A DNA stretch of 64,000 nt from Moniliella sp. 'wahieum' (Eukaryota): the NCBI GenBank assembly GCA_003971905.1, contig RSEE01000165.1, positions 1 to 64,000 on the forward strand, given 5' to 3'. Made by a program: the position numbers and the translations under genes. The notes under the pieces are model-generated. The model did no database searches. It saw nothing but the letters and a program-made list of their open reading frames with translations, and was not told the DNA's origin. Positions 3,613 through 61,380 of the stretch are shown here, in pieces (position 1 is the stretch's first letter; every line of letters begins with the position of its first letter).

Positions 3613-3695
3613 CTGAGTACCTGAGTACTGACTGAGTACTGTGCACTGACGTACTGACTGAGTACTGTGCACTGACGTACTGACCCTGAGGTACT
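3613..3695. repeat. TGAGTAC/TGAC-based short-period array with a ~27-bp direct repeat
   Basis: CTGAGTACCTGAGTACTG followed by two copies of ACTGAGTACTGTGCACTGACGTACTG. Confidence 0.85.
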
Positions 3696-3943
3696 AAAGC
3701 CGACACCCTTGGCGTGTGGCACGCCCATGTCACACTCACATGCCACCGGCTCCACCCGCAACCCCATCCGGCAAGCCTCGCCCGCGGCCCCCCAGTGCCA
3801 TCCCGGTCTCCCCCGCCGCCACCCCTCCCACGTGAGCGTCACCAGCCACCCCGTCCTTTTCCCCGCCCCGCCCGCTCCCCCGCCCCGCCCCGCTTCCGCA
3901 CTCCGCCAGCCAAGCCACGCGTGGTAGTCCCAATGCGTAAGCA

Positions 3944-4092
3944 TCACTAGCACTACACTAGTCACGAGTCACTGGTCACTAGGTCACTAGGTCACTAGTC
4001 ACTGACCATCGATCACTAGTCAAACGTCACGCGTCATGCGCATCACGAGTCTCTAATCACTTTAATCACTAGTCACTAGTCACTAGTCACTG
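3944..4092. repeat. TCACTAG heptamer array (degenerate)
   Basis: Many TCACTAG/TCACTGG/TCACGAG units; perfect (TCACTAG)3TCA at 4066-4089. Confidence 0.85.
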
Positions 4093-5267
4093 GATCCATA
4101 CTCCAATCGATTGTATGTCCGGCAAGCTGCTACTCGGTGAACCCCTGGCCACCCCCTCCCGCCAGCATCCATCATGCCCGTCCCCATCGGCCATTTCCAA
4201 TGCCTCTCTTCCTGCTTCAGCAACTCTTCAAGCTGCGTACCACACGACTTCCAGCTGAACCGATCATCGATCATCCTGCGTGACATCACTTCTCACCGCT
4301 ACGTACCGGTCACCGACGAGTGAGTCTCAGTAGTGAAACAATGGGGGCGAGGGCGAAGCACTACACTGGGCGATCAATGCGTGAGCGCCATTCATCCGTC
4401 ACACCAATGAGAGCTCAGAGCTCAGAACCGCGGTTATCTGTTAACGTGCTAGCCGAGCAGCTACACTGCCAAGCTAAGGACGATTGCACTGTGCAGGGCG
4501 GAAACATTCAGAGATCGCTTCTCGTAAGCTCCTGACGCCAGCCCGAACTTGAATGCAACAAAGTGAAGAGGACGGAGGGGAACGAGGCGCGACGGGAACC
4601 AATCCCGAGCGGGCGAGGCACAAAACTCCATAGCCAGTTCCGGTTGCCAGCGACAGGACCGTTCAGGCCATCAACCCAAGGGGTGCCACATGCAGCGAAC
4701 GCCACCTAACTCCAACAAGTAGGAATATCCTCCGCAGCCTAAGGTCCCTAGAGGGATGCTCCGGCTGAGGGCATTGCAGTGGACGCGCACTGGCGCATCC
4801 GAGCCCCTGTCACCGCATAAGCAGATCTGACTAATCACATCCCTTCCACCCTGTTCTACCCGACTCTCCTTTATCATCTGCTCCTGACGGGCTCGTCCCT
4901 TGGAATGCTACAACCATCAGTATACATCATGCATCATGCATCATCCCCTCTCCTCACATATTAGGTTGAGCTCACGTTTATCTGTGCAGAAGAGAGACCG
5001 TCTATCTCCTGCCTGCCTGAGCCCAGCGACGGACCAGCCCCACCGAGTGCATGATGGAAACCCGCGGCGTTACCCCTACAGACGCCCTGCCCGTCCCAAA
5101 ACCCAACCCCTGCAAGAAGACCTCCCCCATGCCCGACACAACCCATGACGCCGCCGCCGCCGTGTCAGCGAACACGCTATTGACCAAGGGTCTACGGGCC
5201 AGCCGCCTCCAAGGTCACTCTGACCCTCCTATACATCCAGGCACCACGCCAGCACCCTATCCACTTC

Positions 5268-5453
5268 TGTTAAGACGCGGCTGTGTCAGATGCTGGAGAT
5301 AGGTAGTGGGGGTGGTGTTGCCGAGCAACGGCGAGCTGGACCTACGGGCCGTGATAGGTTCTGGGCCTGGAAGCGCGTAGAAGCTCATAATGGGAGGTCC
5401 GCGACACGTGCCGCGGAAACCCAATGGGCTCTGGAACACTGTGGTGGTCAACA
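5268..5453. mobile_element. Candidate solo LTR or small insertion
   Basis: Segment absent from repeat copy B. It begins TGTTAA and ends TCAACA (TG..CA, 5/6 inverted match). No clean target-site duplication (ACTTC vs CTCTG). Confidence 0.3.
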
Positions 5454-5511
5454 CTCTGGACTAATAGCACCACACCTTATCCTTATCCAAGTTCTCTTCC
5501 TCAGTGTCTGT

Positions 5512-5542
5512 TCAACGTTCAACGTTCAACGTTCAACGTTGA
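5512..5542. repeat. (TCAACGT)4TGA heptamer array
   Basis: Four perfect 7-nt units read directly from the sequence. Confidence 0.95.
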
Positions 5543-6199
5543 AGCTGTTGAAGTTCAATATTCAATCCAGCGCCTACCTTCACCTCGACACTGCATGACT
5601 GCACTTGGGACATCGCTGGGGAACCAGGATCATTACACGCAACCTGAAGCCGCCGCCGCCAATCTCCCGTCCGCTCCCACTGCCTCACAGATCCACTTCC
5701 CGCCGCCGCCGTCACCGCGCCCGCCTCACCGCAACCGACGCGTCCGCTGAGCCTACCTAGGCCGCTACGGTCACGGTACGCCATACCCCAAGCATATCGC
5801 CTATCCAGACCGGAGTCGGATCGAGACCCTCTTCGCGGTCCATCTGACGCGCACGCAAGTGAGTCGATGGCTGCGGACACATCCGCAGGTGCTGACGGGA
5901 CACGGACGACTTTGATGCGGCGGTGCTTCGTAACCCGCTAAAGGTGCTTCGTAACCCGCTAGCCACACGATAACAGCCTTAATACTAGCAGCCCAAAGCC
6001 CAAGACACACACACACCCCACCTGGTGGACGAGCCACCCGCTGCCCCCGACGGAGAATCGATTCCGGTATACCACGCGCGTGTCGGCCGGGCCGTTACCG
6101 ATGGTACCAAGGCTGCTGACCGTGGCCGCGAGTCCCGCCGTAAGCGCTGTTTCCATCACCCGTTGGCCATCGTCGCCACCACAGCGGACGGCGTGCCCG

Positions 6200-6603
6200 T
6201 TGCCCCGCGCAACGAGCGCGCATCAATGACCACGGCAGAGTGGCCTCTATGGCCCGTGGCCGAGAAGACTGAGCTGGCTGGTCTAGCCGCGATGGATGCC
6301 ATGGAAGAGGCGCCTCGCCCGTCGGCGCCGACGCCCGTGCACCGCACCCGGACGGTGCATGCCTTCGGGATCACCCCCGAAAACAAGTTCCCCAAGTGCA
6401 AGGCGCGGCTCGTGGTTAAGGGCAACGAGGAAGACACGAGCGACCTGCCCAACGCCAGGACCTTTGCCAGCATGCCCTCTGACCAAGCCGTGCGCACGGT
6501 AATTGTCGGTGGGCACGAGCAGGGTTTGAAGGCTTTCTAATTCGACTGCCAGTCGGCCTATCTACACGTGCCCATTCCCTACGAGGTGTACATCAAACCG
6601 CCA
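6200..6603 (+). mobile_element. Ty1/copia reverse transcriptase relic (N-terminal part of RVT_2)
   Basis: PRNERASMTTAEWPLW..AE..EL..L, KARLVVKGNEE, TFAS..VRTVI, in-frame TAA at 6538, then FDCQSAYLHVPIPYEVYIKPP. This matches copia KARLVAxG..TFAP..(Q)xDVxxAFL..EVYMxQP. No downstream YVDD motif seen. Confidence 0.85.
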
Positions 6604-7844
6604 ACCGTTTCTTGCGGGACAAAAACAACGTTTTGCGTCTTTCACCCTACCCCTGGCCTTGGCCTCACTCGGAGTCAGCATCAATCGATCATAAGCATCG
6701 CGGTCACTGTCTGGCCCTGTTGCATCCCTAGCGATTCGCTGGCATCTCGATACCCAAAAAGGATCGAGGGGTCTCATTTTAAATCCACCAAATCATTTAC
6801 CGCCTCTCAGATCTCAGCCTGAGACCCCGCATCCCACAAGCTCCCACCGCCCACCGGCCTCAAGACCCGTTGAGTAAGAGATGTGCTGGGGTTACATGGT
6901 TCCAGCTGTACAGGCCTCGCGGCCGAACCTGGTCGACAGACTGAGGAGGTGCGCATACAAGCCACCAAGCCACTAGCATAACACAGTCACCTCAGGCCTG
7001 GCGCTGGTCTCAGATCGTAGGCCTCAGGCCCTCAGGTCCCGCCACAGTGTGCAGAGCCTCACCCTTCGGGCTTCAAGCGTCACGCGTCAAGCTGTACGGT
7101 TTAAGCTTTGCGAAGCCAGGGCCTCCGCCGCACGCCGGCCGGCACCAAGCATCATGCATCAAGCATCACGCTTCCAGAGCTAGCTCCAAGCTTCAAGTCC
7201 ATCAGTGTGACACATGTTCGCCCCCTAGCGATTCTGCTCCGAGCACAGCCCCAGTGCGCCGCGGAAGTCAGCAGCCCACCTACCGAGTTTGCCGAGCAGA
7301 GTACTTCTGTGACCTGAGAGACTGCAGCACGGACCTCGACTTTCTCCTGATTAATGATTCCTGATCTTCTGTTTCGCAAAGAGGGGGACGAGGTTAGGAA
7401 CACACTCAACCACAATCGATGATCCTTTCGCTGTTGAACAACACGAACCCCCGGCCGAAGAGCTCCGGCAATTGAATGAGGATATCGTCGCTGATTTCTC
7501 CCAGCGTCATTGTTGATGGTACTGGTGCATTTGGTTCCCGGTTGCGAACACCCGAGCAGTGCAGCAACACATGATTGCTACTCTACCAGAGAGGAACTGA
7601 CAACGACGCAGGCAACAGAGGCGTGCGTGGACCTCTAGCCGTCAAGTTCATAAAATGGAGGAGCTGCTCAGCCGGGGACTGGCAGCACATGGCTTGCTTG
7701 GATGTTTCCGCGTGGAGTGGACCCCGCTGGGCTACGGAGGCATACACTTTGCCGCACCGTGTTTGTAAAAGAGCAGAGAGCAGGCAGTTGATGAAGACTG
7801 CATTGCACATGAACGAAGGACGCTCGAAAATACGTATACTAACC

Positions 7845-7960
7845 GCTCGGCAGTACATTGACTAACAGCTCGGCAGTGCATTGACTATCGCAACGTGTGC
7901 ACAAGTGTTTCTGTCAGTGGGAAGCACTGCAGGGGAGGGTGGCTCGGCTATACATTGACT
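7845..7960. repeat. Three copies of a ~20-bp repeat
   Basis: GCTCGGCAGTACATTGACTA (7845-7864), GCTCGGCAGTGCATTGACTA (7868-7887), GCTCGGCTATACATTGACT (7942-7960). Confidence 0.85.
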
Positions 7961-9699: not shown

Positions 9700-10990
9700 G
9701 ACGTACCCCCGCTGGGACCGGGACTGGAGTCGTAACGCGTAACGGCGACCGCCCCAGGCGGAGCGAAGCAGGTCGCAGAACAAGCCATTCGTCACGCTGC
9801 GAACGCCACAGAGTGGGTACTGAGTACTGAGGGGAAAGCCCGTGGGGTTACCGCTGAGTGTGCGATTTGAAGCTGGACATGTGCTTGCTACTTGCTTCTT
9901 CGGCTGTGGCGCGACCGGTGGGCGGGTGAAGGAGCATATACAGGGGGAAGGGGAGGCAGCGAAACCCTTCAGGTCTGTGTCCCATCGCGACTCGATTCCG
10001 TCCGATCTGATCTGATCCGGTTCGAGGCAAGACTGACCACGCCGCCCCATCCCCATCCCATCCCCAAGTCCACCTCCACCTCCAACTCCTCCAACCGCAC
10101 CTCAGCCAGTAAGTGGCCACGCTGAGCCAGCTACTCTTTCCGCAGACCGATGTCCATGTCCACGTCCATGTGCATTCCCATTTCCATTCCCATGCGCGTG
10201 TGGTGTCGGGCTGTGCGGGCTTGCCGTAGTGCGCCACGGGGACCCCTGCCGTCGTCAGATGTTTACACTGGGACCACAGGAGGAGGGAGGGGCAGTGCTG
10301 CCATGCATGTCGTGCCGTGTCGTGTCGTGTCGTTTCGTGTCATGCACTGCAGGCGTCGCAACTTGGGCAGCTGGCGGGACCAACCTGTCCCGATGGAATG
10401 TCCTGCGGTCCAGCGGTCCAGCGGTGCAAGATGTACGTATGTAGGTGTCCAGGTGCCCAGATCCACAGATACGCCGATGGCCAGGCAATCTACACACCAG
10501 GGCGCGTTAGGCGGCAGGTCTTACGTTGCGGGGAACCGCCGGCGGGAGCTACGGTTCGTGCGCTGGCGAGACTCCTGCCACACACACCGCGCCACAGCAC
10601 GTCCACGTGGTACCTTGGCCCACAGCACGCCACAACAACACCCACAGCACAGCAACACAAGACAGCACAACAGAGAACAGCAACGGAGGGTAGCAATGCA
10701 ACGCGGACGCAGACGCAGACGCAGACGGGGACGGGGGGCGGGGGGGGGGGGGGGGGTAGGACAGTGTCCAGACAGGCGAAGAGACAGGCGGTCCCGAGCA
10801 GACGCAAGAAGAAACGAAGGACAGACAAACGAAGGACAAGAAGGACAAGCGCGGTAGTAGAGTACAGTCCTCTGAGGAGGGCGCGGGAGCGGAGGAAGGA
10901 AGAGGTAAGGAAAAGGTGTAAAGGGGTAGGATGAGGGGCGGGAGAAAGACACAGTGAAGACAATAAGAACAACCCCGGGGGGGGGGGGAG

Positions 10991-32847: not shown

Positions 32848-33813
32848 GGTGGGGTGGGGTGGGGGTGGTGGAGGAAGAGGAAGAGGAAGAGGAAGAGGAA
32901 GAGGAAGAGACAAGACGGAAGAAGAAGAGCGCCCAGGGGCAGACGAGAGGACGTGATAAATAGCACGGGAAACAGCCGCGGCGGCCGGCGGGGTGGAACA
33001 GGGCTGGCGGGGAATAAGACACTGCCCCCGTGCGGGGCGCCAATAAGTCCGTCGGGCAGGGGGCGAGTGTGTGGGCGCAGCGCCTGCTGTGCATCTGCGC
33101 CCACTTGCGGGCCTGGGAGCGCCACCCGGGGCGTTCCGCAGCACTGCCCCCGTGCGTGTGCTGGGCGCTGTGGGCGAGAGCGGTGTGCTGCGCCCCGTGG
33201 ACGAAGGGTGGCGTGGTGCCTGGCTGCGCAACCTTCTCACGCGTCGCGCAGGGACACAGCGTCTGCGTTCCCATCCGCTGTCTCGGCCGTGTGTCTTCGC
33301 GGCTGCCAGCGCCTCAGCCTTTCTCACCTCGTCTTGTCCCATCAGATCCAGATCTCCGAGGCCTGCTCCGCGGTGCAAACGCTGGCCATGGCACGCAGGG
33401 TAGGCTGTCGAGTGGGGTTCGTCGTACAATGGGCCAGCGCGTGCGAGCAGCGGCGGACATGTCCCATCGCCATCCGACGGCGGGCTGAGCAGCTCGGAGC
33501 GGCTCCGCCAGCCGCGCCGCCAGCGCAGTTAACGCAGCAGCAACCATCAATCATCTAATCTAACATGCAACACGTACCACGCGCAGCCCCATCCCCTGTG
33601 CCTCTCACAGGCGCAGTGCCACGGCCTGGGGGGTGCGGGGCACACAAAGCCGCCCCGACAAGAAACCAAAACACAACAGTAAACCCGAAACCAGAGCAAA
33701 AAGAAGGGACAGTCGATCGACCCAGAGACCCATGGGTACATGTTACACGTTACGCGTTATCCGTTACTGGTGGTGCATTACATGGATTCGATCGGCGATC
33801 GGCGTACTCGAGC

Positions 33814-37400: not shown

Positions 37401-40400
37401 GGCGGGCAGAAGCAGCAGGCAGCTCGGCCGCTCGACCGTCCCAGCAGGCGCCCGCACAGGACAAGTCAAGCACAGCTACCTGGCCTCGCTTTCTGTCCGC
37501 CCGACTTGGATTCTTCTGGGGCCGCCGGCGGTGAATCTTGATTTCTTCCTGCGCCGCCCGCCCTCTACCCCGCTGTTGCACGACCGCATCACGTGATCCT
37601 CTCCCTCTCTCTCCCATCACATGGCCCGCCGCGGCCAGGGGACCACACCCAGCCAGAGTGAGATTGCTGGTGCCCACTTCTTCTCGCTCGGCCTCCTTTG
37701 TCGATCGATCGTAGATCGACAGGTTAGGCATAGCATCTTGTCCGGTGTGCTTGCCGCGGCCAGGAGAGACAGGCTCCGTCGTATCTAGCTTCATGTTGTC
37801 GTCTCCTCGGGTGCCGCAGTGGTGTGGTGCGAAGGAGTTGCCTTCACATGTAATAAGTGTTAGTTCGATGGAACGAATGCTGTCACAGTCGGGGCCAAGG
37901 CGAGGGAGACCAGAATCGGACTAGGCCAATAAGGGGTGTAGCAATCGTTCGTACCAGGGAAGAAGCAAGAACAGAGGGCATGGTGCGAAGTGGAAGAAAC
38001 AGGGAAGGAGCGAGACGCTCGAGACGAAGAATTTGGAAATGGGAGCGAGATCAGCCAAGGAAACACAGAGGGAAGCCAGAGAGTGATGCAAATGCCGTCC
38101 GAGATAGAGAAACCACATATTTGGCGACACAAACCTCGGTGCTTGGCCTTGCCCCAAACAGAGGTTTTGTTGGAACGGAGGGAAAGACATAAACAGAAGG
38201 AAATGTACGAGTGGAACGAACTGAAGGATGATTCGGTCGGATCCGTCTATCACTGCATCTGCCTATAATAGTCTGTTGCTAATCCATACGTACTGCTATC
38301 CAACCCGGAAGCCCTAAAAGACATTCCATCTTCCGCGCCCCCCCGGTCGGTCATCAGACTCGTTGAGGCCTAGGGCGCAGAGGGAGATGTAGGGTGGAGG
38401 AACAAGGTACTGTGTCCATATTGTTAGTTGGTAGGATGTTCACCACACCTCAGTTAACCACACCCTGTGGCGGCCCTCTGGTCCCCGCCGAGCCCACAAC
38501 GGTCTCTTCCACAACATTTGGCTTGCTAACCCCCTATGGGACATGTCTCTCGTTGAGGCACGGCGTCCGTCCCCCATGCACTCGGTCTCCTCGAACCGAA
38601 GAACCGACGCGGTCCCGACCTTCCCGCGCCTGGCTTTTTGGGCGTGCGAGACGAGCGTCTGACTCTCAGTCTCCCCATCGTAGGTCTATATGTCTCCTCC
38701 TCCTTTTCTCCTGAAAGAATACCCGGTCGAATGCCGTTATCGCCAACAACAACGACTAACATGCGCCCTGCGGCAGGTATTATACTTGGAGCTGTTATCT
38801 GTCTCATCTCGTCTCGTCTCGCCTCGTCTCATCCCCGTGACAGGGTAGGTATCCGATTCAACCTCTCATCTTCCTTGACGCAGTGGACGGACGCTCTCCC
38901 GAACAAATGTGATTGCTGCGGCAACGAAGTGCGAGAACCCAGAGAAGGGGGAAGCGCAGAAGCATACATGAAGAAGAAGAAGAAAAAGTGTGTTTTGAAG
39001 AGTCTTCAATATTCACTTACCATCAGCCTTTTTTCCCACCGAGATCCGCGGGGTCAACGGTACTAACGGTGTAAACCCATCAGCCAATACGACCCAGACC
39101 GGGGCGATCGGTATTGGGATTGGGATTGGGATTGGAATCGGATCGACAGTGGGTGGCAAAAACGACTAATCAATCCTTAGTACTAAGCGCGACGACGGTC
39201 ACGGTGGGTGTTGCAGCTCACGCGAAAAAAAAAATGGAAAACCAACAGAGTGTACACACGGCAACCGTCACGAGAGTGGAATGAATGTTGTTGAATGGGT
39301 TGTGGATTTTGCCTGGACGTTGAGCCTGAGCCTCGAAGTTGAAGTTGAAGTTCAACGTAGAGAGGTGTTGGCGTTGAGCGGGGGAGAGGGTTGGGAGCAC
39401 CTCGGTTTGGTTCGACATCTCGTGCCAACTGACGTACTACCGTGACGGAACGACTGACACTGACACTGACAACTGACGCCAGTTCTGATGCCCATACAAA
39501 GTGGTCCACATGGGGTTGTGGTTGGGGGGGGTTGGTTTGCACACGGAGGACACATGAGAACACAAGAGATGTGACAAGGCAGAGTGGTGGGCGACGCACG
39601 GGCCAGCTGCCAAGACCAAGCACGGCGGGGCGCTATCTCGATCTGGGCCAGGCACGGCAGCAGTGTTGCCACCGCTACGTCATGTGCGCGTAGGTTTATG
39701 ACGTGTAGGGAGGAATAGGACTGCGCGCAGCCGAGCATCCAGCACAGCACCGCACTAGCCCAGTGTGCCGCCCGCCCCAATTTTAATTACCCAGCCTACA
39801 TGGCGCACGTACCTGCCGCTAGCCAGGTACCCAGCCTGTCCCCAGCGACATACAGCAGCCTGTGGGGCAAACGTCAAACCGCAGCCCTCACAACATCAAC
39901 CCTGCTCACCCTCCCACCGCGATGCGCCCGCCGCCTTCCCCCGCGCCCTGACTGGCTCGCGGGTGGGCGTCCTCGTGGGGGGCGAACATCATGAGACGGG
40001 GTGTGTGTGGTGCAGTGGCAAAAACGAACGAGCGGTGATGGTGTCGATGAGGGGGCGAGCGCAGGGAATAGCTCGGTCTGTCTTGTGCAACACACTGGGA
40101 TGGCGTTGCATCTGCCGAGCACAACACAAGGCTACTACTACTCGCATCAGCAGATGGATTGGCAGATTGCGCAGAGAGAGAGAGGGTAGGGGATGGATGA
40201 CGAACATGAGGCAGGAAGAGGTACGAAGTATGACCCCGTCTGTGGCCCCGCACCGGCCGCCTTTCCCTGGCCCTAACCCGCGCAATGCGTGGTGCTGGGC
40301 GATGGATGACGCACACCGCAGCAGAGCGGCGAGGGGAGAGGGAGAGCTGTAGCGACCCCCGACGGGCGCCGTGCGGGCGGTCGTGCGCGCGGTGCTCTCC

Positions 40401-40580: not shown

Positions 40581-40707
40581 GTGTGCCTGTGGGTCCTGCC
40601 GCGCCGCCGCTCGACCCTCGTCTACCTGTCTCTCTCCCTCCCTCCCTCCCTCCCTCCCTCCATCCATCCTTCCATCCACCCCTCGCTGCCTTGCCATCCA
40701 CCCCGCC

Positions 40708-41925
40708 ATGGCCGACACGATTGACGTTGCCGCGTTCCAGGCCCACAAGGCTTCCAAGAGCAGCCCGCTTCCTACCGCAAGGGCTCCAACCGCCCCGGCC
40801 TGCTGGACGGCGAACGCCGTCGCTCGTCTGTCACGACACCAAGATCAAACTCAACTCGGGCCACTACATTCCAGTGGTTGCGCTTGGCGTGTACAAGGCG
40901 CCCAACGACTCGACCCGAGGACGCGGTCAAATGGGCATTTGAAGCGGGCTATCGCCATGTTGATTCGGGTACGTGTATTCTATGCTTCTCGTGAAGGAAT
41001 GTGAGCCAGCGATCCAGCGTCTGTTGGCACCGCAGCGTCCTGTCGAATTTTGTTCAAGTGTTGTGTACTGACCGTACGAGAGGTGAGACGCGCGTGTGCG
41101 CGCTATACTGCTGCTGCTGCTGCCCTATTATGTTGCTGCCTTTGTGTGTTGCCAGCGGCGCGGTACGCGAACGAGGAAGCGGTGGGTCGGGCGGTGCGCG
41201 AATTCATCCAACGCACAGGCACACCGCGCGAAGAGATCTTCATCACGTCCAAGTTGTGGGACGCGGACCACGATCGGGCTTCGGAGGCGATTGACGAATC
41301 GTTGAGCAAGTTGGGCTTGGACTATATGGACCTGTATCTGTTGCATTCCCCCGGTGCGGATCGGACGACACGCTTGGCGGCATGGAAGGCGATGGAAGAC
41401 GCGGTGTATGCCGGTAAGATTCGGTCGATTGCGTGTGTCGAATTTTGATGTGGAGGAGTTGGATGATTTGTTGGCCCATGCACGGATCAAGCCCGCCGTG
41501 AACCAGATTGAGTCGCACCCTTTTTTCCAGCACGAGGAGTTGCGGCAAGCCACGTTGCAGCGTGGGATTCACGTGCAAGCGTACTCGCCCATGGCGCAGG
41601 GCGCCGCACTGGAACGTCCGGAAATCGTTGCGATCGCCAAGAAACATAACAAGTCAGCAGCCCAGATCTTGCTCAAGTGGGGCATGAATATCGGCAACAT
41701 TATTCTCCCAAATCGCTCACCAAGTCGCGCATCCAATCCAACGCCGACTTGTTTGACTTTGAACTGGACCAGGACGATATGGACTTGCTCAATAATCTGG
41801 ACGAGGGCATGAAGATGGGCAAGTTGGGCCCGGCTGGCACCTCGGCCCCGGGCTCACGTCGCTCTTCCTCCACCACCGGGGCTTGTCGGGGGCAAACTGC
41901 AAATGAGCACCAACTGAATGGTTAA
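40708..41925 (+). CDS. Aldo-keto reductase (2,5-DKG reductase/Gcy1-like)
   Basis: IKLNSGHYIPVVALGVY, GYRHVDS|AARYANE (intron ~40968-41154), REEIFITSKLW, DLYLLHSP, VSNF, PAVNQIESHP, AYSPMAQG, IQSNADLFDFEL. The D/Y/K/H tetrad is present. Confidence 0.93.
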
Positions 41926-43922
41926 TATAGTGTTCAGGAGCTCGCATCCCTCGGTAATAGAGACACGTTTGTCCTTCTTCTTTTCCCTTCCTCTCCTCTC
42001 CTCTCCTCTCTTCTCCTCTCCTCTCCTCTCCTCGTCCTTCTCGCCTCTGGGTATGTCGCATGGATGGTCGTGGCGGTGAGGGGGGGAGACGTTTGCGCTG
42101 GCGGTCGGATCCCCCTTCTTGTGTGTAGAGGGGGGGTGGACCGCTGGCTGTTACGGCTTTTTTTTGCAGCATGCATTGTATGCCCGCACACCATTGTTTT
42201 CTTCATATCATTAGTCACTCTAGTTACGATACGTACTCATCTTACCCTTTGCCGGCTCGCAGTTTGGTGCTGTTGGACTGATGGGTGCCCATAGATTCAG
42301 TTTGTCTCCCCCATGACAGAGGGAGATGTGGAGACATGGACACAGGGTTTAACATTTTCTCGATGTCGCGTCCTGTGGAACCACTAGCGTCGCATGAAAA
42401 AACACCGTATCAGTGTGGTCGAAGATTACACTAGTACTGGCATGACGGACGGAATGGACCAAAAACTCTTCCCGAGAGAGAAAGTGTATACCCCGACCGA
42501 CCCGGACGCTATACTGTGAGGCTTATCAGACGACCCTTTCCCAATCGTCACAATATATATATGTGACCTATGACCAGAACACTGATGACGAACTTCTACC
42601 ATAGCTAATCGAAAACGCTGGTAAAAGGTTGCGGATAGATATGTGAGGACTACGTACAAAATTCAAGGTGGGCAAGGCTGTGCAAGATTGTGCACAAGAA
42701 ATTTCGATTAGCCATGACAGCTTATTAGTTGACCACAGAGAAGGGCGCCAACAAAAACACGACTGCAACCAGAACTACATACTTACTGTAAGAGACGATT
42801 TGGGGAAAGAAATCCTACTTTCGTTTTCAGAGGCGCCTGCGCGCTCATCAAGTCTCCCGTGTTAGGGGAGGAGAAAGTCGAATTAAAGAAGAAAAGGATA
42901 AGGTGCAAGTATAAGTATAGCAAAATGAAAACGAGAGAAGAATGAGGACGATGAAGAGCAGGAGAAAGAGGAAGAGGTGACGGTGGAGGAGTAAGCAGGC
43001 AAACACAAGGCGACCTGGCAGCCTCGTTTTGACTCTGCACCCGGAGGTGGGTAAGAACCGTGGGGTGCGACGCTGGAACATTGCCGGGCCGAAGCATATA
43101 TACGGTATCGAAACCCCCCCGTAGAAAGCAAGTCCTGACTCAGTGGTAATGACCAAATGCACTCGCCCCAACTGCGAAGATCTGTGGTCGAAATGACCCC
43201 TTACCCCACTGGTTCCCTCTATGTTTTCGAGGGGGAGGAGGGGTGATGCGAGAGATGTGAGATGTGAACCGAGTAGGCGGGAGAGATGAGAGCTGAGGCG
43301 GAGTAGATAGGTGCCCATGACTAATGATCGATGGGCACGGATGATGGTTGGTACAACGAGAAGATTCAAGTGATGGAGGTGGGTTTTGATGGACAGAGAA
43401 AAATGGAGGTTTTTTGGGGATTGCCCGTCAGGCATCAGGCCTCAGGGGCGAGATTGGTGTTTAGTTACTAGGCAGCAGAGCAAAGAGAAGCATGACATAC
43501 ATTTGATGCAGTTATCAACAGGCCTGGGGCCTGAAGCTCAGGCCTGCAGAGCCCAAGAGGAGACGAGAGAAGGGAAGCCTGGACGCTTGACAGAACCTTT
43601 TCCCGCTTGCCGCTTCACATGTCACGCGTGTCACGAGTCAAGCGTTAAGCGAGCATCGATCCCATAGTAGTGATGGCACGTGCGCCACCGGATGAGAGCT
43701 GTAGTGTGATACGCCTCATCGATCATCTCGAAGACGATGTCGATGATGCAGATGAGGGATGGTCATGCAATGCATCATGCATCGACATTCGAATCCTCGA
43801 GGCGACGTCGGGGCGACGGGGTTGCCAAGGCGGGGTCCAGCCAAGATAGGCAGCGACTAGCGACGCCTGAGCCTGCTGAAAGAGGATGGGATCCGCAACA
43901 CGGGAGCATTGCAGGCGGCGGC

Positions 43923-44168
43923 TCGGTGACATGTTGTTGACCAGGGTCCTATGGGCCAGCCCCCTCCGCGGCACTCCTGACCATCTTACTCATCCGGGCA
44001 CCACACCAGTATCCCTATCCCCTGGCCTAGTGCCGCTCTCTTTCTTCTCCTTCTTCTCCTTCTTCTTCTGATCCTCAGTCTGGGTTCAACGTTCAACCCA
44101 GCTCCTGTCTTCTCTCGGCCATTGCATAACTGCACTTAGGACGTCGCTGGGTAACCAGGATCATTACA
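43923..44168 (+). repeat. Dispersed repeat, copy B (homologous to 5164-5637)
   Basis: Colinear with copy A, roughly 80% identity by eye, many transitions; lacks the 5268-5453 insert. Confidence 0.85.
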
Positions 44169-45820
44169 TGTGATGCGTGTCACACGCACATGTCAAAAAG
44201 CACATGGGACGTGGGACAAGCATGCGACTGGCCAGTCCGAGTGGCTGTCATGCTTGTCTGCACGCTGTCTGTTGTTCTTTGGAGCGTCTATGGACGACGG
44301 ACGACGATGACGCGATGCCGGTGAACGTGGGGAACCGATTGGGCTCATCCGTGGCAACAAGGCTGGACATGGTCACGGAGGGTACGTACCCCCCAACCGG
44401 AAGCATGCGATCATGTGGATGTGATGCATGATGCGCCCCCAGCACCCTGGCCGGCCGAACGAGAGGCCACAGGGGCGGCGAATGTTTTGTGTACTGAGTG
44501 TACTGCTGTGCGAGTACGAGTACTCAGACTACTGAGTACGGAGTACTGAGGACGGGGGACGGGTGGACTGTGGCTGACTGGGGCCGGCTGGTGGCCGGGA
44601 AAAAGCCATATGGTCTGGGATTGTTTCTCAAACTGCCGTCGGAGGGTCCCAGGCTGTCGAAGCGGTGGGTGTGGTCGATGATGGATGATCGCATCGCCAA
44701 TCGAACTGAGTAACCGAGTCCTCAGACTCAGGACTGGGCGACTGAGGTACGGATCGATGATTGATGTAAATGATAAGAGCAGCGGTTAAGACGGTTAAGC
44801 GAAACGTTAAACGTTAAGGTTGAACGTTTCGATAGGCGATAGCAGCTGCTATATGCTATCGACTATCAGAGGCGGAGGCTTGGTGGGTGGCCGGGCGAGA
44901 GAGGCATACGCAGCTTCACGCGTCACGCATCCCATCGTCCCAACCGAGTGTAGGACCCTACGTACTCCTCCCACCCGTCGCTCGTCGGCACTCGACCCTC
45001 GGTCTCCGTTTCACGTCCACGCGTCCTCAGCGCCTCACGCGGCAACGTCTCAACGCCGTCAACGCGCACCAAAACGTCGTCGACGATCTAACGTCCAACA
45101 GCGACCATGCTCGATCGACCATCAGACATCAATCATCGATCATCAACCGACAGCAGGCCCTCGCCCTCCGCCCGAGCGACGCGGTGTGGAAGGGTGTGGA
45201 GGGTGGACTGGGGGACTGGGGGACTGGGGGCTGTGGTTGTAGCGAGACGAGCACAGCCGCCTGCTCCCCCCCCAAGCCACATCCCGGCGGAATACCACCT
45301 TTCTCTTGGCCAGCGTTGTTCGGATACACGCTTCGTGGTGGGTAGCGCTTAGCGCTTGAAGCTTGATAGCGCGTAGCACCGTTGGTGTGCATAGCCACGG
45401 CCCACTGCTATCTAAGACTGCCAGCACTCGGCGGAGGGTATCGCCTGTCTGGCTCCCCAGCGCACCGCTGCTGTTCCAAGCACGCAGCCCGTCCTCAGTG
45501 CCTCCGTACTACTCAGTACTCAGTCCTCAATCGGTGGCTTTGACCGTCTCGCAGATCTCAACTCTCGTGGTTTGCGTTTGGCCTCCTCAGCGCCAGCCTC
45601 TGCTCCTCTCGCTTAGCGCTTTCGCCCGATCCAACACACCTCCAGACAAGACAAGCGTAGGGGTTAGGCACCCCCCCCCTGTGTTTGTCCCACCGGCTCT
45701 TGTTTCCCGTCGTCCGTCTGCCTCCCTTGCCCCCTCCCCCCCCCCCTCTCTCCTGTCTCTTGCACCCCCCACCGCTCCCCCCCCCACCGGCCACCACCCC
45801 TTCCGCCTGTGCCGACGACA

Positions 45821-47974
45821 ATGAACTCAGCCTCGACGCTGAGCAAGGACCCCTTTGTCCTCACTGGCGAGACCGAAACGGGCCGTCGCGCCTACCCTGC
45901 CGGCCAGCTCTATGCACCTCTGCCACTGACGATCTCCAGCCGCTGTATCCCCAGGTGCGTATCCCGCCACTGCAACAGCACATGTAGCGGACGATCATAG
46001 ACAGGGCCACAAAGACTAACCATGCTCCTTGCCTTGCCTTTCTCCCTCCCCAGAAGCCCCAGCGCAAACGACGAACTGCCATCCTGGCTCTTGGCGCCAT
46101 TGCGGCGGTTGTCATCCTGGCCATCGCGGTACGGTGTTGCACTCTTCCGTCTCTTTCCCCTTTTTGGCGAATGATCGATGGTCGGCTACTGACCCTGACC
46201 CCCCCTTTCTCTTTCTCTTTCTCCTGCAGCTTGGCGTTGGCCTGGGCGTTGGCCTGCACAAGAAGAGCAGCCACTCGGCCACAGGTTCGGGCGGTACCGA
46301 CGGTGGCAGCTCCACCGGCAGCGGCAGCGGTAGCGGTAGTGACACCGGCCCTCCTGTCCCGCAAATCCCCTACGCTTACAGTCTTCCTGGTGGGGATGCT
46401 GCCGCCGTTCCGGCAGGCCAAGATGATAGCCATGCGGGCATGCTCGAAAGTGGATATTACACTGTGCGTGTCTCCCGTTTTGCTTGCTGCTTGTCCTTTG
46501 CCCCGCGTCGGACCGGTAATATATGGGTCCCCTGACACTGACACCTTCCCCCCCCCCCGCTCCCCCGCTCCCTTCTGGTCGCATTTGCCGGCCGGCAGAC
46601 TTCCTACACTAGCTTGACCAATGCGTTCCAATGGACACCTCAGGCGCTGCACTTTAACGGCACCCACCCTGCCTCGGCCGACATTACCATCAACACTACC
46701 GCCCCGACCAATGTGGAGATTGACGGGTTTGGCGCGTCCTTGACTGATGCCAGTGCGTCGCTGCTGATGCAAATCAAAAAGTCGAATGGGAGCGTGTACA
46801 ATGCGACGATGCATTCGCTGTTCAATCGTCGTTCGGGTCTGAGCATCTTACGTGTTTCCATTGGTTCGTCCGATTACAGTTTGCCCGGTAAAGTCTACAC
46901 GTTTGCCGACCACAAAGGGTCGTCGTCCAACCCGCTCTCCAAGTTCTCAGATAAGACTGCCCACGCGGACTTGTACCCCATCTTAAGGGACGCACTCCAG
47001 GTCAATCCGGCACTCAAGATCAGCCTCTTGCCCTGGTCGCCCCGTCCTGGATGAAGTCCAACCAGAACATCAATGGCGGCTCGCTGGCCAATGGCATGAC
47101 CAATACCCTGGCTGAGTACCTGGCCCGGTCCGTACAAGCGTTCGACGCTGCTGTCGGTGTCAAGCCCTGGGCGCTGGCAGTACAGAATGAGCCCTTCAAC
47201 GCCATGCCTTACCCATCGATGCTCATGACCTCCGAGCTGCAGATGCAGCTGCTCAGTATCCTTCGTGGCCGCCTGGCCCAGCTCGGGTACGGCGCGACGT
47301 ACCTCTGGGGCTTGGAGGATGACTTTGTGCACTGGGATACGGCTGCGAGCTTGGTCAAGCAGAATGCGTCGAGTGTGGATGGGATTTCGTGGCACTGCTA
47401 CAACGGCAGTTGGCAGGGTGCGCAGTCGCTTCGGCGGCCGTTGGTGCGCAGATGGCACAACAGTTGCGCATGTCCATGACCGAGTGCACAGGCCAGGACA
47501 CGAACCAAGATAACGAGCCCAGCGTGCGCTGGTGGACGCAAAACATTTTCCCCATGCTCGCGCACAACTTTAGCTCCATCCTCGTGTGGAACGTGGCGCT
47601 CAACAGCCAGTTTGGGCCCCACCTCGGCTCCACCATCTGCCAAAATTGCAAGGGCGCAATCGAGATTGATCCGAGCTCGGTCGAGCCGAGCTTGCAGAGC
47701 ATCATGCTCCAGCACTTGTCTGTCGCCTCCTCGGACCTCACCCGCCTCGGCGGCGGACCAGCACACAACCCTTCCCACCACGATGGGCAAAACCCCTCTT
47801 CGTCTTGCGCCCAAGCACAGGCGTTCCAGGCGCCTTGGAACTCCCCGCAACACGATACGGCTTGGTGGTGGAAAACTCGTGAACCAAAACGACCACCATG
47901 ACCGTCGCGCTCCACCAACGTACCGCCTCGCTCCCGGTTCCCTCGGGCTTGTCGTATATGTCTGGACAATGTAA
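45821..47974 (+). CDS. Glycoside hydrolase family 30 with N-terminal TM anchor (possible beta-1,6-glucanase)
   Basis: RKRR plus hydrophobic helix plus LGVGLGVGL; IDGFGASLTDASA, LRVSIGSSDYS, PWSP..WMK, acid/base VQNEP, WHCY, nucleophile MTECTG, WNVALN..GP. Introns ~45955-46053, ~46128-46229, ~46466-46598. Confidence 0.9.
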
Positions 47975-53253: not shown

Positions 53254-53565
53254 CCTGGGGGCGGTGGAGGTGGAGGGGGAGGTGGAGGTGGAGGTGGAGA
53301 TGGAGATGGTGGGGGGGCCCAAGGCTGGATGCGGTTGGCTGAGCTCAGCAGCGCCACGTGATGCGGGGTGGGTGTCACCTGTCATCACACAACATCACAT
53401 GTGACATGCCCGTGTGATCGCAGGGCTATCTGATCGGAGATTGGATCTGATGCGATCAGCTGCTTACGCTAGGCGGCGGAAGGCGGGGCGGAATGCGGGC
53501 GAAGCGCAGGCGGCTATCTCGGTGCTTTTTTCGTCTCCGCCACCGGCTGGGAGCTGTCCAAGACG

Positions 53566-55238: not shown

Positions 55239-55344
55239 CCAAGCGAATCCAATCCAATCCAAGCGAATCCAATCCAAGCGAATCCAATCCAAGCGAATCC
55301 AATCTAAGCGAATCCATCCAAGCGAACGCGATCCAAGCGAACGC
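55239..55344. repeat. ~15-bp minisatellite (CCAAGCGAATCCAAT)n
   Basis: About 7 units just downstream of the carrier stop codon. Confidence 0.9.
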
Positions 55345-58300
55345 ACCCGGCCCGAATCGGTACTTGAACGGTGGTTCCCCACCCACCCACCCACCCGACG
55401 CACAGCGCGCGACGGTTCAGCCTCGTCCGTCCTGATCCTCGTTTTCATCCTGATTCTCGTTTTCGTCATCGTTCCGTTTTCGTTCCGTTTTCGTTTTCGT
55501 TTCGGTCCTGATTCCATCCTTCGTTCCCCGCCTTCCTCTCCCACCCCCTTCCACCCCCTTCCTCCTCCTCATTGTTCTTTCTTGCTCCTGCTCCTTCCTA
55601 CACTACACACCTTGCCCAGCCGGCACCCGGGCTCCTCGCGCCACCCAAGAAAGAGGAAGGTCGCGTGGCGTGGCGCGGCGACGCGGGGCAAGGCGGTCCA
55701 GGGCGTTGGGGCGGGGACCCTGGACCGGACTTGTATTCGGGGGGCAGTCAGCCGTGCTAATATACCTTACCTTGCCTTTCCTCGCCTGTGCCTTTTGCCT
55801 TTTGCCTTTGCCTGCCTTTGCCTTTGCCTTTGCCTTTTCCCGCCTTCGTCCTCGCTTTTGCCTTGCCTTTCGCCTCACTCGCCTTGGCTGTCGCCTTCGC
55901 ATTCGCATTTCGGATCGGGTGGCGTTTGGCGTTGACATTTCGGTTCGGTTCGGTTCGGGGGCCGCGCGCTGGGTCGCCGTACCACGCACGCCGCGCGGCT
56001 GGACGGCAACGCATTGGGTTGGTATTCGTCCCAGACGTTCGGTTGGTTGGGCGGTGGGGCGGTGGGTCGGTCCTCCCTCGTCCGCCACGCGCGGCTCGAG
56101 GTTGAGGCTTGCCTGCGTGTGCGCTGTGTTGTGCGCTGTGCCACCACATCCCCACCCGCACCCACACCACATATACTACACTACACACTCACACTCACAC
56201 TACACCACTACACTACATTACACTTCTGCACCACATTTCCCTGCACTGCTCTTCCTCCTCGTCACTTTCCTACCCTCCTACCCTCCTACCCTCCTACCCT
56301 CTTATTTTGCAACGTGTATCATGCCTTGTTCGGTGCGTGCTCTCTCTCGCTGGTAGGCCCGGTCGGGGAGAACCTAGGTCGATAGATGAGGGATGGTTGG
56401 ATGGGTGGATGGGTGGATGGTTGGGTCTCCGATCTCCGAACTCCGATCTATCGGGAGAAATCGGATGATTGGTTCGGACGCGCGGAGCAGTACGGATGGG
56501 GAGACCAGAGATCAGAGATCCGGCATCAGAGATCCGACATCAGGGATCAGAGATTAGAGATCAGATATGGGAGAGGACGGCTGAGCGTTGAGAGGCGGCC
56601 GAGCGGAGCCAGCTGAGCGTGGCGGGCTACGACCCGCCTGGCCCCCGGCTGGATGGAATCCATCCGTTCGTCCATCCACATTTTTCTCCTCGCGCTCTTT
56701 TAATTGTACTGCTCTATCAAAATGATACCCTTTCACCAGGATCGCGTGCCCGCTTGGTTCGGCGTACTGATGAGGATTGCAGTAACCACCAGGATCTCTT
56801 TGCCCTCCGCGGAAGATCGATTACCCACCCGATGAGTACACTCAGTACTCAATATACTCAATTGAGTCGCGCCTCCCGCGCTGAGCGCTGAAAATTGAAT
56901 TCTCCGACCTTTTCACCATCCCATCCTCGTCCCCGTCCTCGTCCTCGTCCTTCCAACTCACACCCCCTCCTCGGCGCATCGCTTCCGTCTCTCCCTCGGG
57001 CCTCAGGCTCGCTTGCTCGAACGCCCATCGTGTGTTACATGGCCGATGCGCGTCGCGTCGCGTAGTGAAGGTTGAACGTGGAAATAACATCGGAGAAGTG
57101 GGCTTTGGCGGTGCTAGATGGGAGCGAGGCCAAGGTGTTGGATGCGTGCTATCTGATGGTTTGCTCCCTGGATAGTGACTAGATGGCTTGTGGGCGTCCG
57201 GCGTGGGATCAGCGTTGGTTGATAGGCGTCGTATTGGTTGGTTGGCTACTGTAAATGACGCGAATGGGTGGTTGCCCCACACGCCACGTTGCCTGACACA
57301 AGTCGATTGAATATTGACGTGTGACATGCACATGTGACATGTGACACAGGCACCCCCCCACGTGGCATGTGACATGCGCTCCAAGTGGGATCACATGCTT
57401 TGCACCCGCCGCGCACCCCACCACTGCCCCCGTGCTGCAGGGTGGGTGTATACGTCATGCTCACCCATCCATCCGTCACGCGCTAGTCACTAGTCACTAG
57501 TCACTCGCCTGCCTCCTCGTCCGGCGCGCCCCATGGAGAAGGCGGAGAGCACGGTGGATTTGGATCTTCGCATTCCACCTTGGGCATCCCACTTTCTGCT
57601 TGTAATTGCCAACTGCCACGCCCACCAGGCTACTGCTACTGGCAACTGGCAACTGGTAATTGATCACTAGCAAACGATAGCAACTAGTCGCGTGAGTGCA
57701 GTGAGTACTGTCAGTACCGAGTATACTGCGTTTTCGCGAGTCTGATGCAATATCAGGTCTCCAACGTCGGTTCAATCCAATGTCCAAGGTCCAATGCGTC
57801 CCTTCCCTCTCTCTTCCCACCTTCTTCCTCGCTTCCTACTACCTCTTGCCAACTGCAAAATGCACTTCCCTCCCGCGTCGCCGTCCGTACAGAACACCCT
57901 TGTTCCCCCCTGTTTTTCCCCTCAGCGACGCACCCTAATCGGCATGCATCGTGCCGCGGACCTACCCTGCCTGCCTCTCTTCAGATCTGATCTCACTCTC
58001 AGTACTCAGTTTGCCTAGGGCCTAGGGCTTAGAAACTGCCGCGACAGAGACGCACCAGAAAGCCAGAAAGACGCAGACACGCGCCCCCCACCCCGTTCGT
58101 CCAACCTCCGTTTCGTTTCACTAGGTCACGCCGGTCGATCCCTCCGGCCCCTCCCGAGGCTCAAGTCACATAGCACATGGCGCACAAGTCGCTATACCAC
58201 AGAGTAGTCACTACCCAGGTCAGGGGGCTCAGCGCTCACGCTCAGGCCTCAGGCCGGCCAACAGTTCGTAAGTTCGTTTCCTGAGGTTCAGCCTCGGCAC

Positions 58301-58505
58301 GCTCCAGGCCGGACTGCGCCATTGATATCTGAGAGTATTCGGAGAAGTACCTCAGTACTCAGTTTCGGGCCAGGTATAGTCCCCCGGTCCCCCATTAGCG
58401 TTCAGTACGTTCAGCGCAATAGACCAGTGGAAGCGCCCGCGCCTCGCTAACTAGACCGACCGGAAAACGCCAGTATTCATCGCGGGCCAGAGACGGGCAG
58501 CGACG

Positions 58506-58546
58506 CATGTCACCATGTCACCATGTCACCATGTCACCATGTCACC
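58506..58546. repeat. (CATGTCAC)5 octamer array
   Basis: Five perfect units read directly. Confidence 0.95.
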
Positions 58547-61380
58547 ACTTGGCATCCAATCTCGAATCTTGAAGGACTATCCTGCGACCTGCATCCCCCG
58601 TCGTCCTGTCGTCCTGTCGTCCTTGCAGATCTCGCACAGGACATCATGGTATCGGTACTTGGGTTCGTGCCACCATGTCACCGCGGTTCCAGCTATGCAC
58701 TATGGCTGGCTATACTGCTACTGCATACTGGCCCAGGCTAACTGCATCAATGCCATCCATGGTGGCGCCGCTTGCCCTCGCCAATCGATCGAATCGATCT
58801 ACGATCGACGATCTAATCTCCGTAATAGTCGAAAAGTCGTAATAGTCGCAATAGTGCCTACCACATCCACCGGTTCAGCCGTAGGGACCGTCGGGGGTGT
58901 GGTGCATGGAGAGCATCCTCGCCATCATCAGCAGCGCCTTTTCCTTTTTTCTTTTTTTCTTTTTTTCTTTTGGTCAAAGGAACTCTCCTATTGGCCCCAC
59001 CATATGTCTCTCCAGGTCACTGTATCAGTCACTATGTAGGAGGGAGATTGCTTCGGATGCCGACAGGTATTCATTCAGCTGCATGGAATGGCGCCTTATA
59101 TACCAGAGGAGAAGGAGAAGCTATCACACGGTAGACGACGCGTGATGAGGGGAAAGAGACACAAAGGGGGCAAGGAAGATCTAGAACAAGGATCATACCC
59201 ACATCCTGTGGGAATGTGTGTGTGATCCGTCACACTAGTCAGGGCTAGACAAGGGAGACGAAGGATTAAGGTCCTGTCAAGACGGGGGAAACGACAAGAT
59301 CTTCCGTGGGAGAAAACTGTCACGGGCTGCGGCGGACCGGAGATGGAAGGAATCCAGCAGAGAACAGATCATAAGGCCTAAGGCCTAAGGAAAGGGAAGA
59401 GCGAGAGACACAGGATGCAGAATTGGAAATTGGTGCGAACCTAGAGTCATTCGGTAACAGCCTCGGTCTGCCTCGCCCTTCCGTGGGCGAGCGGGAACGT
59501 CCATGTTTTTGTGCCAGCGCGGGACAAGAAGGGGGAGGGGGGGGAGGGCATAGGCTATAGGCATACCGGAATCCCAGGACCGTATAGACACGAACAAGAA
59601 CGCCCTTGGAGCAATGGGCGCGGGGAGCGCAGGCAAGCTCGTGGGTTTGTGCCCCCAGCACATCTCGGCCGAAAGGTATACCGCTGAGCTCAGGCTGAGC
59701 GCTTGCAAGGCGCCAGAGGGATTCCCTATGGATATGCGCACCCAGCATCGCCATTGTTTGCCATCGCGGGCAGGATGGGCAGGATGGGCAGGACGATGGG
59801 CGGGGCGCTTGTGCGCCATGCGAACCTGGTCAAGCGGGTGAACCTGGAGGGGGCCGGCGGCTGGGGGCCGGGGACGGAGGAGGGGACAGTGTCACCATGC
59901 CAGTCACCTGTCACCATGTCACATGGCACCTGTCAATATGTCACATATCACCTGTCAGCATATCACCTGTCAGCCATGGATCGTGACGCGTGATGGATGA
60001 TGCATGGACCTGGTGCGACACCTGTCTGGCCCTGACCCATCCAATTATCCATCCGACATCCCCCGCTCGGCTGGCCTCGGTGTCGGGGCCAACGGGGGGC
60101 AAGAGCGCGCAGCCGAGCGCGGATAGTGCAAATGTCGACAATGCGAATGGGAGCGCTAGCTCAGCGCTGCGCGGCTGAGCGCTGAATTTCTGATATGAGA
60201 TCTGGGATCGGAACGGCAGCGTTGAACGTTGAGGTTCGAGTCCAGGGTTCAGGAGGCCTGAAACGAGTAATGGCAACGAGAGGCCCAGCGGGATAGAGAT
60301 CTCGTCCAAGGGCAGCGGCTACTCGTGGCGGATCGAACCCATGGAGTATGGATAGGATGGATGATCGATGATCCGTCGAAACGAAGGCCGGCTACTCTGC
60401 TCAGCTCAGCACTGGGGAGCGTTCAGGTGAACTTCAACTTCAACGTTTTGAGGCTCCCCTCTAGTGCACTAGTCACCGTTGCTCAGTCGAGCATGGCGGG
60501 CGCGGGTGATGCACAGAGGGAGGGAGGGGAGGCAGGATGGAGGATGAATGATGGATGGTGGATGATGGATGATGCGAAAAATCGCCCGACTGTGTGTGTC
60601 TCATAGTGTCTCGCACGCCCCGCCTGGCGCCGTGCGGGGGTGTGGGGCGGGGCGAGTGTGGAGCGGCGGCCGGGGGTGGGGCGATGGATGGCCTGGCGAG
60701 GGCAGCTGGGATGGGATGGGCTGGGATGTGTGCGAGCACAGTGCGGTTGCGGACGGACCAGGCGCGGGCGCGGACATGGGGCATGGGACACACACGCGAT
60801 GCCGCGGGCCCGTGTTGCTGCTGGTGCGCAGGCAACGGCAAAGCACGCCTCCTCTGCCCGGCAGCGCGGCGGCAGACGCACTGCCCCCCACGTCCGCCGC
60901 GCATGGCGCCAGAGCACAGAGTGTACCGAGTAGGAGGAGTACTGAGTGTGCTGAGGTCACATGTGGGCACTGCGTAACCGAGTACCGAGTGCCGAGAGCG
61001 CCAAGCGCGGTGCCAGTGGAGTGTCTCCCGCGGAGATGCCGGACCCCGTGGGGACAGCCCCCACGCAGCGCCAGAGCCACGCCAGATACTCAACCCGTCG
61101 GGGTTTGTTTGGCCGCGGCCGGGTCCCAGGTCGGATTCTGGTCTGATGCACTTGGCTCATGCTTTAAAGCGCTGCCGCCGCGCTGGGCCCGCCTTTTTAC
61201 CCGTCTGTCTCTTGGTGCCCTGCTCGCCAGTACGTCTTTCCTTTGGCCCACCACCACCACCACCACCACCACCACCACCCCCTCCTTCCTCCGTCTGCAT
61301 CTGCATCTGCATCTCCATCTCCATCTCCATCTCCATCTCCATCTCCGTCTCCGTCGTCTGTGTGCGCAGCGACGACCAGC

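Follow-up and report, generated by a model that had tools for sequence, protein, structure and literature searches.

Palindromic TNA-anchored units in intergenic DNA of Moniliella sp. 'wahieum' as probable excision footprints of a flank-hairpin transposase

Why do so many short intergenic arrays, unrelated in sequence at first sight, obey a single rule? This question is raised by the window analysed here, a stretch of 64,000 nucleotides from contig RSEE01000165.1 (C165) of Moniliella sp. 'wahieum', which carries TAACCC at positions 1–20 and is the telomeric end of the contig. An earlier note on this DNA described units of TCA-N4-TCA, usually with a self-complementary N4, and offered two origins for them: phased binding sites of a general chromatin or origin factor, or the footprint of a cut, hairpin, or template-switch process that writes palindromes beside TCA. 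As described below, the units are probably excision footprints of a flank-hairpin transposase (RAG/Transib/CACTA-type) with a 7-bp NN-TNA-NN target duplication. The data consist of the window, about 0.8 Mb in eight hand-picked (non-random) blocks, and whole-genome pattern and family searches in an assembly of 69.5 Mb in total. The AP-3 delta subunit encoded in the window shares 65% identity with that of Tilletiaria and 52–58% with those of other Ustilaginomycotina, and the organism is therefore a smut-lineage fungus.

The two strands of the window contain 87 TCA-N4-TCA sites, 44 of which have a palindromic spacer. The simulated expectations (15 runs each) are 15.0 sites with 1.1 palindromic for an order-3 Markov background and 16.2 with 3.1 for order 5, and TCA-to-TCA spacers of 2, 3, 5, 6, and 8 bases occur at only 23, 37, 27, 35, and 13 sites. 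The excess of the four-base spacing anticipated in the earlier note is thus found against both the background and the other spacers. All 25 coordinates cited there carry the sequences attributed to them, and the 13 palindromic tetramers are present. Outside the window, 740 kb contain 1078 TCA-N4-TCA sites, of which 596 are palindromic, and all 16 tetramers occur, with some sites counted twice since this sample contains one homeologous pair and one inverted duplicate. The segments C8:424501-428046 and C8:431385-434933 form a 3.5-kb inverted duplicate with 99% identity, separated by a 3.3-kb spacer. The excess recurs in all eight other sampled blocks, 524 TCA sites are left in 814 kb once tandem runs are collapsed, and a 17-base two-unit pattern occurs 641 times genome-wide, compared with 2 occurrences of its reversed control. 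The palindrome pattern is real and genome-wide.

The identity of the anchor should be noted. TCA/TGA units number 642 where 18.8 are expected (34-fold) and TAA/TTA units 122 where 2.3 are expected (54-fold), whereas the remaining twelve x-N-x' anchors stay at 0.7–1.4 times expectation. TCA is therefore an enriched anchor, as first described, but the rule is broader; TAA/TTA obeys it too, a TCA-only anchor is rejected, and the anchor is T-N-A. Paired anchors share their middle base far more often than not. Inverted forms of the TCA-N4-TGA type, to which the cited positions 53395 and 57981 belong, are rare, in keeping with their description as occasional, and are palindromic in 3 of 7 and 2 of 7 cases. 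The window has 49 TNA-palindrome-TNA sites, and none of them falls where a self-trained coding model calls coding sequence, the calls being rough because of frameshifts. This agrees with the claim that all listed cases are intergenic, except that at least two arrays, at 5512-5564 and 44086, lie within remnants resembling long terminal repeats (LTRs).

The spacer is copied from the bases beside the anchor. Hereafter the empty site is written ab-TNA-pq, and primes denote complements, q'p' being the inverted copy of pq. The inserts at TNA are 7 to 9 bases long, each with a short inverted copy of neighbouring bases, and the filled form of ab-TNA-pq is TNA-pq-q'p'-TNA-pq or its mirror image. Among 364 isolated sites, 286 have a spacer matching a flank (116 on the left only, 112 on the right only, 58 on both sides), and 78 match neither. 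When the period-7 identity of the 524 collapsed sites is extended outward, the peaks are at (0,2) with 68 sites and (2,0) with 66, and two bases on both sides are found in 23. At 325 of the 524 sites this identity is shorter than 7 bases, and these sites are therefore not 7-base duplications.

This last count bears directly on an origin by simple slippage of 7-mers that tend to form hairpins (each a 6-base palindrome with one further base), comparable to that of CNG repeats, or by assembly error. Such processes would fit the 126 chains with identical palindromic spacers (perfect tandem runs), the unit-number differences seen between homeologs, and the richness of the assembly in one-base indels. 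However, they leave unexplained the lack of enrichment at the other twelve anchors and the 55 of 103 cluster calls that are identical in a separately assembled homeolog. Slippage explains array length but not the first unit; as an origin it is largely refuted and, together with assembly error, extremely improbable. Plain 7-base tandem duplication is rejected by the same 325 sites, and the earlier statement that slippage of one unit does not suffice is borne out.

The size classes of the inserts were counted over 780 kb of non-redundant sequence, from which simple repeats had been removed and in which each tandem run counted once. The two +7 classes (pq q'p' or b'a' ab alone) number 121 and 116 against 4.1 expected each, and 201 more are ambiguous. 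The +8 classes, with one extra flank base, number 13 and 12 (0.5 expected), and the +9 classes, with both extra flank bases, 19 and 21 (0.2 expected). Three extra flank bases are found in 0 and 1 cases, and both palindromes are kept in 2. With control anchors, the +7 class does not exceed 10 and the other classes do not exceed 6. A test made without assuming an anchor gives the same picture: an excess of inverted dinucleotides appears only where a TNA starts five bases from the repeat end, with 145, 19, and 27 cases for repeats of 5, 6, and 7 bases and none among 76 repeats of 8 bases. Non-TNA cases in this test match the reversed-only control, and inverted inserts of 3 and 4 bases are at background level. 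A third flanking base is retained in 0 of 15 cases. The retained duplication reaches 7 bases, never 8. The reconstructed target shows little preference outside TNA; the central base is G/C in 463 of 559 clusters, compared with 73% of non-coding TNA, and the neighbouring dinucleotides AA, TA, GC, and AT are under-used.

These features suggest the following course of events. A cut-and-paste DNA transposon would insert at NN-T-N-A-NN and duplicate the 7 bases, leaving ab-TNA-pq on each side. On excision, the transposase would close each flank as a hairpin exactly at the junction, and a host nuclease would open the hairpin two bases beyond the tip to give the 4-base palindromic overhang pq q'p'. 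End joining would then retain one overhang and trim the other end, mostly back to TNA, possibly assisted by T:A pairing across TNA. The product would be TNA-pq-q'p'-TNA-pq or its mirror (+7), and partial fill would give the less frequent +8 and +9 forms. Alternatively, the +7 form can be read as an extension of 3 bases whose joining used one T:A pair; this may be why it dominates. Of the two origins proposed in the earlier note, the cut-and-hairpin footprint is thus the one backed by the flank-copied spacer, and it can now be specified. The data establish the sequence rule, the ceiling of 7 bases, and the occurrence of filled and empty versions of a site in homeologs; the transposon, the hairpin, the nuclease, the direction of change, and the contribution of slippage are inferred.

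A short-range replication template switch, or flap-templated repair, at a TNA lesion was also considered, in which two bases are copied backwards and synthesis re-enters 5 to 7 bases upstream. A single switch would leave just such an inverted dinucleotide with a direct repeat of 5–7 bases, few joints have two inverted pieces, and no element is required. On the other hand, a switch explains neither the strict TNA specificity nor the fixed two-base inversion with its hard 7-base limit, and it should affect introns too. A strict set of 31 introns (3 kb) contains 0 sites where about 2.6 are expected, a sample too small to weigh either way. We regard this origin as quite unlikely.

Arrays with different spacers can be read in terms of the excision footprints. 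A left and a right hit on one TNA would produce two different palindromes in phase, and repeated hits would produce perfect 7-mer tandems that slippage may then have lengthened. Among 24 chains with two different palindromes (one counted twice through a duplicate, and several inside longer arrays), 11 show the predicted flanks left and right, and 22 show them on one side or both. The chain at 7073-7093, cited earlier as a case of different spacers in phase, reads as given, but its first spacer, AGCG, is not palindromic. Judging from its bases, a right event and a left event together with one substitution may have produced the chain.

Filled and empty forms of the same site are found between homeologous contigs. 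The segments C101:5666-110000 and C12:about 142000-250000 are homeologous, with 94,440 bases aligned and 3.3% substitutions, and C17 and C62 have homeologous stretches too. Two copies about 3–7% apart are present in the assembly, and the organism is therefore probably a hybrid or a heterozygous diploid. The C101/C12 pair gives 103 cluster calls, with shared sites counted from both copies: 55 are the same in the two copies, 28 are changed, and 20 correspond to an empty site in the other copy. These 20 include some changes of unit number and some unclean cases. Among controls with other anchors, 1 palindromic pair in 36 and 17 non-palindromic pairs in 731 are empty; for non-palindromic TNA pairs, decayed scars included, the figure is 10 of 111. 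Compared with matched non-coding 5-base period-7 repeats, the fractions are 16 of 67 for scars and 14 of 168 for the repeats. In the C17/C62 pair, where 10 cluster calls could be aligned and 4 unaligned ones were dropped, the other copy is empty for 4, three of them as clean single events. Where the event is clean, the empty allele offers a single TNA and nothing palindromic that could slip. Setting the 20 differences against 3,095 substitutions gives an estimate of very roughly one event per 150 substitutions.

The quality of the assembly affects these comparisons. Frameshifts are numerous in otherwise normal genes of the window, for example at 40709-41900 and 61380-64000, and 1,018 of the 1,666 indels in the C101/C12 alignment are of one base, suggesting uncorrected long-read errors. 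A query of window positions 40700-47900 for sequencing runs listed none. For the window itself a homeolog was not found; one was sought for 56200-64000 without success, and both matches of the ABC-transporter gene are 80% paralogs.

The units and clusters in the window are as follows, with the strand given as "." throughout.
3571..3695, 7-nt units at 3578 and 3622 with 8-nt units at 3614, 3647, and 3673
3944..4091, long mixed array, mainly TCA-CTAG, with 8-nt units at 3976 and 3984, a 9-nt unit at 4057, and a CGCG unit at 4027
4264..4273, one unit with a TCGA core
4927..4943, pair of units with a TGCA core
5512..5564, ACGT array with a 9-nt unit at 5540 and an ATAT unit, within an LTR-like remnant
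6807..6816, one unit with a GATC core, templated by the left flank
7024..7168, cluster of an 8-nt unit at 7024, the mixed chain 7073-7093, and a TGCA unit at 7152
7348..7357, one unit with a TTAA core
9733..9830, TAA-CGCG-TAA and TGA-GTAC-TGA units, the TAA unit being absent from the earlier list
33750..33759, TTA-CGCG-TTA unit
39006..39015, one unit with an ATAT core
43435..43725, units at 43435, 43615, and 43716 with a 9-nt unit at 43622
44086..44925, units at 44086 (in an LTR-like remnant), 44422, 44808 (TAA anchor), and 44916
45133..45522, units at 45133, 45357, and 45513, upstream of a gene starting near 45820
53395..53404, inverted TCA-CATG-TGA, a minor class
56842..56891, GTAC unit, 9-nt unit at 56849, and GCGC unit
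57308..57503, units at 57308, 57335, 57487, and 57494
57981..58361, inverted form at 57981 with units at 57999, 58229, 58242, and 58352
58508..58546, tandem run of the 8-nt class, period 8
59372..59388, pair of TAA-GGCC units
59904..60371, cluster upstream of the ABC transporter gene, with an 8-nt unit at 59911 and units at 59984, 60176, 60223, and 60362

Several of these positions coincide with retroelement remnants. The region 5270-6540 holds an LTR-like remnant followed by a reverse-transcriptase fragment, which appears to be Copia-type by its motif and which has no Pfam match. An LTR piece at 44084-44168 is related to this remnant (81%) and has one ACGT unit only, compared with the array at 5512-5564. 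At about 59035-59228, a solo LTR of about 200 bases (TG...CA, with a 5-base duplication) splits a TCA-CTAG-TCA unit; about 40 copies of this LTR are listed, with 88–100% identity. Targeting of the motif by the retrotransposon was rejected, as the seven other LTR copies examined are not in a unit.

The distribution and age of the units bear on the other origin proposed at the outset, in which selection would maintain phased sites where a general chromatin or origin factor reads TNA every 7 bases. With the rough gene model, clusters number 0 in 141 kb of coding DNA and 1 in 19 kb of within-gene non-coding DNA. Their absence from coding DNA would suit binding sites, as would their strong clustering, with 38% of sites lying within 50 bases of another (10% at random), and a mild density peak 500–750 bases from gene ends. 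However, the density is alike, 8.4–8.9 per 10 kb, in tandem, divergent, and convergent gaps, so that promoter-bearing gaps are not favoured. Judged by substitutions, sites (26 of 790) are not more conserved than flanks (116 of 2955), a comparison of low power in which shared sites are counted from both copies. About a fifth of the clusters differ between homeologs, and a TNA reader needs no 16 different palindromes copied from the flank. Binding sites are accordingly a very unlikely origin, though later co-option of some arrays is possible. The link to Ustilago maydis made in the earlier note is not supported either: the motif concerned, ATTCACGATTC, has 0 occurrences in 784 kb, its spacer CGAT is non-palindromic, and its association with autonomously replicating sequences was not found in the literature searched. 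Interspersed repeats hold few sites, none in 11.4 kb of young copies and 4 in 21.9 kb of older copies, whereas intergenic DNA has about 8.6 per 10 kb, as expected if scars build up over time.

Which enzyme could have left the footprints is the remaining step. Remnants matching Transposase_21 (CACTA-type) were found on C17, on its homeolog C62, and on C34. In the C17/C62 pair, substitutions fall 14/18/16 by codon position, compared with 7/3/17 in a neighbouring gene, though frameshifts blur this comparison; given this even spread, the copy looks like a neutrally decaying fossil. The C34 gene (L182:3262-6872) occurs once, has long open frames, and shows no detectable ends; it is a candidate domesticated or recent copy. 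An insertion at C101:22915-23474 (L018:2915-3474), absent from the homeolog, carries one 8-base word at both ends and once inside and has no inverted ends; it possibly consists of two nested site-specific insertions.

A number of observations weigh against the transposon reading. Tens of thousands of scars with almost no resident elements would be unusual. A scan for inverted ends in about 0.85 Mb (about 1% of the genome) gave no NN-TNA-NN-flanked element among the matches listed, the larger indels of the C101/C12 pair contain no element with such a duplication, no inverted ends or TNA-centred duplication were detected at the three CACTA-like loci, and two pattern searches gave no matching pair among the first 100 listed of 127 and 133 matches. 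Genome family searches for hAT (PF05699), MULE (PF10551), KDZ, and Plavaka were empty, but these negatives are weak, the controls being silent for three of the four, hAT among them. Joints that keep both overhangs are rare (the 2 mentioned above), and both are in symmetric contexts. A strict test with near-perfect flanks found 4 clear and 1 ambiguous +7/+9 TNA events among 132 indels of 5–11 bases, a low yield because of the many one-base indels in the assembly. The filled and empty pairs are unpolarised, and deletions could be among them. Elements of the CMCT clade (EnSpm/CACTA, Transib, Plavaka, ESTA) have 2–5 bp duplications (PMC12730594), shorter than the 7 bp suggested here, and excision of Muta1 is more than 90% precise in yeast (PMC5499845).

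Since no element was found, the template switch discussed above and an element-free enzyme both have to be kept in view. The latter would be a host-encoded or domesticated transposase-like nuclease making a 7-base staggered cut at NN-TNA-NN with hairpinned ends. It accounts for the same class spectrum and for the lack of resident elements, and the single-copy C34 gene would suit it. However, the duplication would have to be filled before blunt hairpins form, which a resident element provides naturally, and the C17/C62 transposase pair resembles a decaying fossil. The near absence of scars within genes fits selection against a large intermediate. We consider the element-free nuclease unlikely, and favour excision footprints of a transposon.

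A wider claim is that a RAG-like cut-and-hairpin enzyme, belonging to a 7-bp NN-TNA-NN transposon lineage with almost no residents or kept by the host as a nuclease, continuously rewrites the intergenic DNA; this is advanced tentatively, and we hold it to be doubtful. Extrapolation from 712 perfect sites in 784 kb gives an estimate of about 60,000 units genome-wide. If the claim is true, one such enzyme wrote them, and an engine of tandem-repeat and promoter-sequence birth hitherto undescribed in a eukaryote would be at work. Scars of this kind are already known; what appears new is their target, their scale, and how they build up arrays. The scar pattern was not found in print in the literature searched, which covers few subscription journals. 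Should the excision reading hold, a single transposition and repair pathway has left a natural archive of great size, from whose sequence alone one can tell the target site, the length of the duplication, where hairpins are opened, and what end joining produces. The implied flank-hairpin transposase would duplicate more bases than are described for its likely clade, and its footprints would seed tandem repeats and place every A-xy-y'x'-T palindrome near genes. For motif discovery, the units are a warning: an intergenic motif may be strong and phased and yet be a scar of mutation.

Several known systems can be compared. In U. maydis, 10-bp repeats have been suggested as transposon footprints (PMC4081816), which resemble the present units as an abundant short intergenic motif in a smut fungus with a footprint proposal. 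The U. maydis motif of the earlier note differs in being one fixed sequence. Among metagenome loci, which include no close relative and no U. maydis DNA, the five closest to the query (89 kb, gene-dense) have palindromic spacers in 3 of 24 TNA-N4-TNA sites, and the other 75 in 18 of 375.

Tc1/mariner footprints consist of a small target direct repeat around a palindrome derived from the element ends and fixed per family, and PIF/Harbinger elements use a TWA/TNA-type target with a 3-bp duplication. Both resemble the present case, in the short target direct repeat around a small palindrome and in the TNA-type target. Palindromes from element ends of the mariner type are rejected here, as all 16 cores occur and match the flank. 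For PIF/Harbinger, a 3-base duplication cannot yield the +8 and +9 forms, and the longer duplication deduced here argues against it.

A 7-bp duplication has a basidiomycete precedent in the hAT7 families of rust fungi (PMC12730594). Ac/Ds footprints have odd palindromes centred on the complement of the bordering base, and microhomology is common in their joints (PMC5873905). The likeness to the present units lies in hairpin-derived palindromic inserts, microhomology-aided joining, and few dominant products. The scars here, however, are even, although the target sequences of hAT7 could bear on this. The typical hAT joint p q' a' b is found 2 times against 4.1 expected, and odd palindromes of the hAT type are rejected on this count; 3-base odd forms are at 2–3 times expectation, compared with 1.3–2 times for control anchors. 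As the palindromes are even, unlike those of Ac/Ds, chemistry of the RAG/Transib/CACTA or MULE type is favoured over hAT7. The MULE Muta1 forms a flank hairpin (43+43 nt) with no bases lost, as would the present enzyme, but has 8–9 bp duplications (PMC5499845) and the precise excision noted above.

A close likeness in joint structure is offered by P nucleotides in V(D)J coding joints and by Transib/RAG-type excision joints. The elements hAT, Transib, RAG, and Muta1 hairpin the flank and leave the opening to the host (PMC5499845), and Artemis opens hairpins mainly at +2 to give a 4-base overhang (PMC2175297). These joints and the present units share an even palindrome turning at the last flank base, the dominance of two added bases that is expected from a +2 opening, and variable trimming of the partner end (PMC5499845, PMC2175297). 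Three features of such footprints are present here: the insert is the flank end in reverse complement, a fixed-length duplication remains with variable trimming, and matching empty sites, though unpolarised, occur in homeolog pairs. What sets the present units apart is that the joint lies between two copies of a TNA-centred 7-base duplication, and that one genome holds very many such joints.

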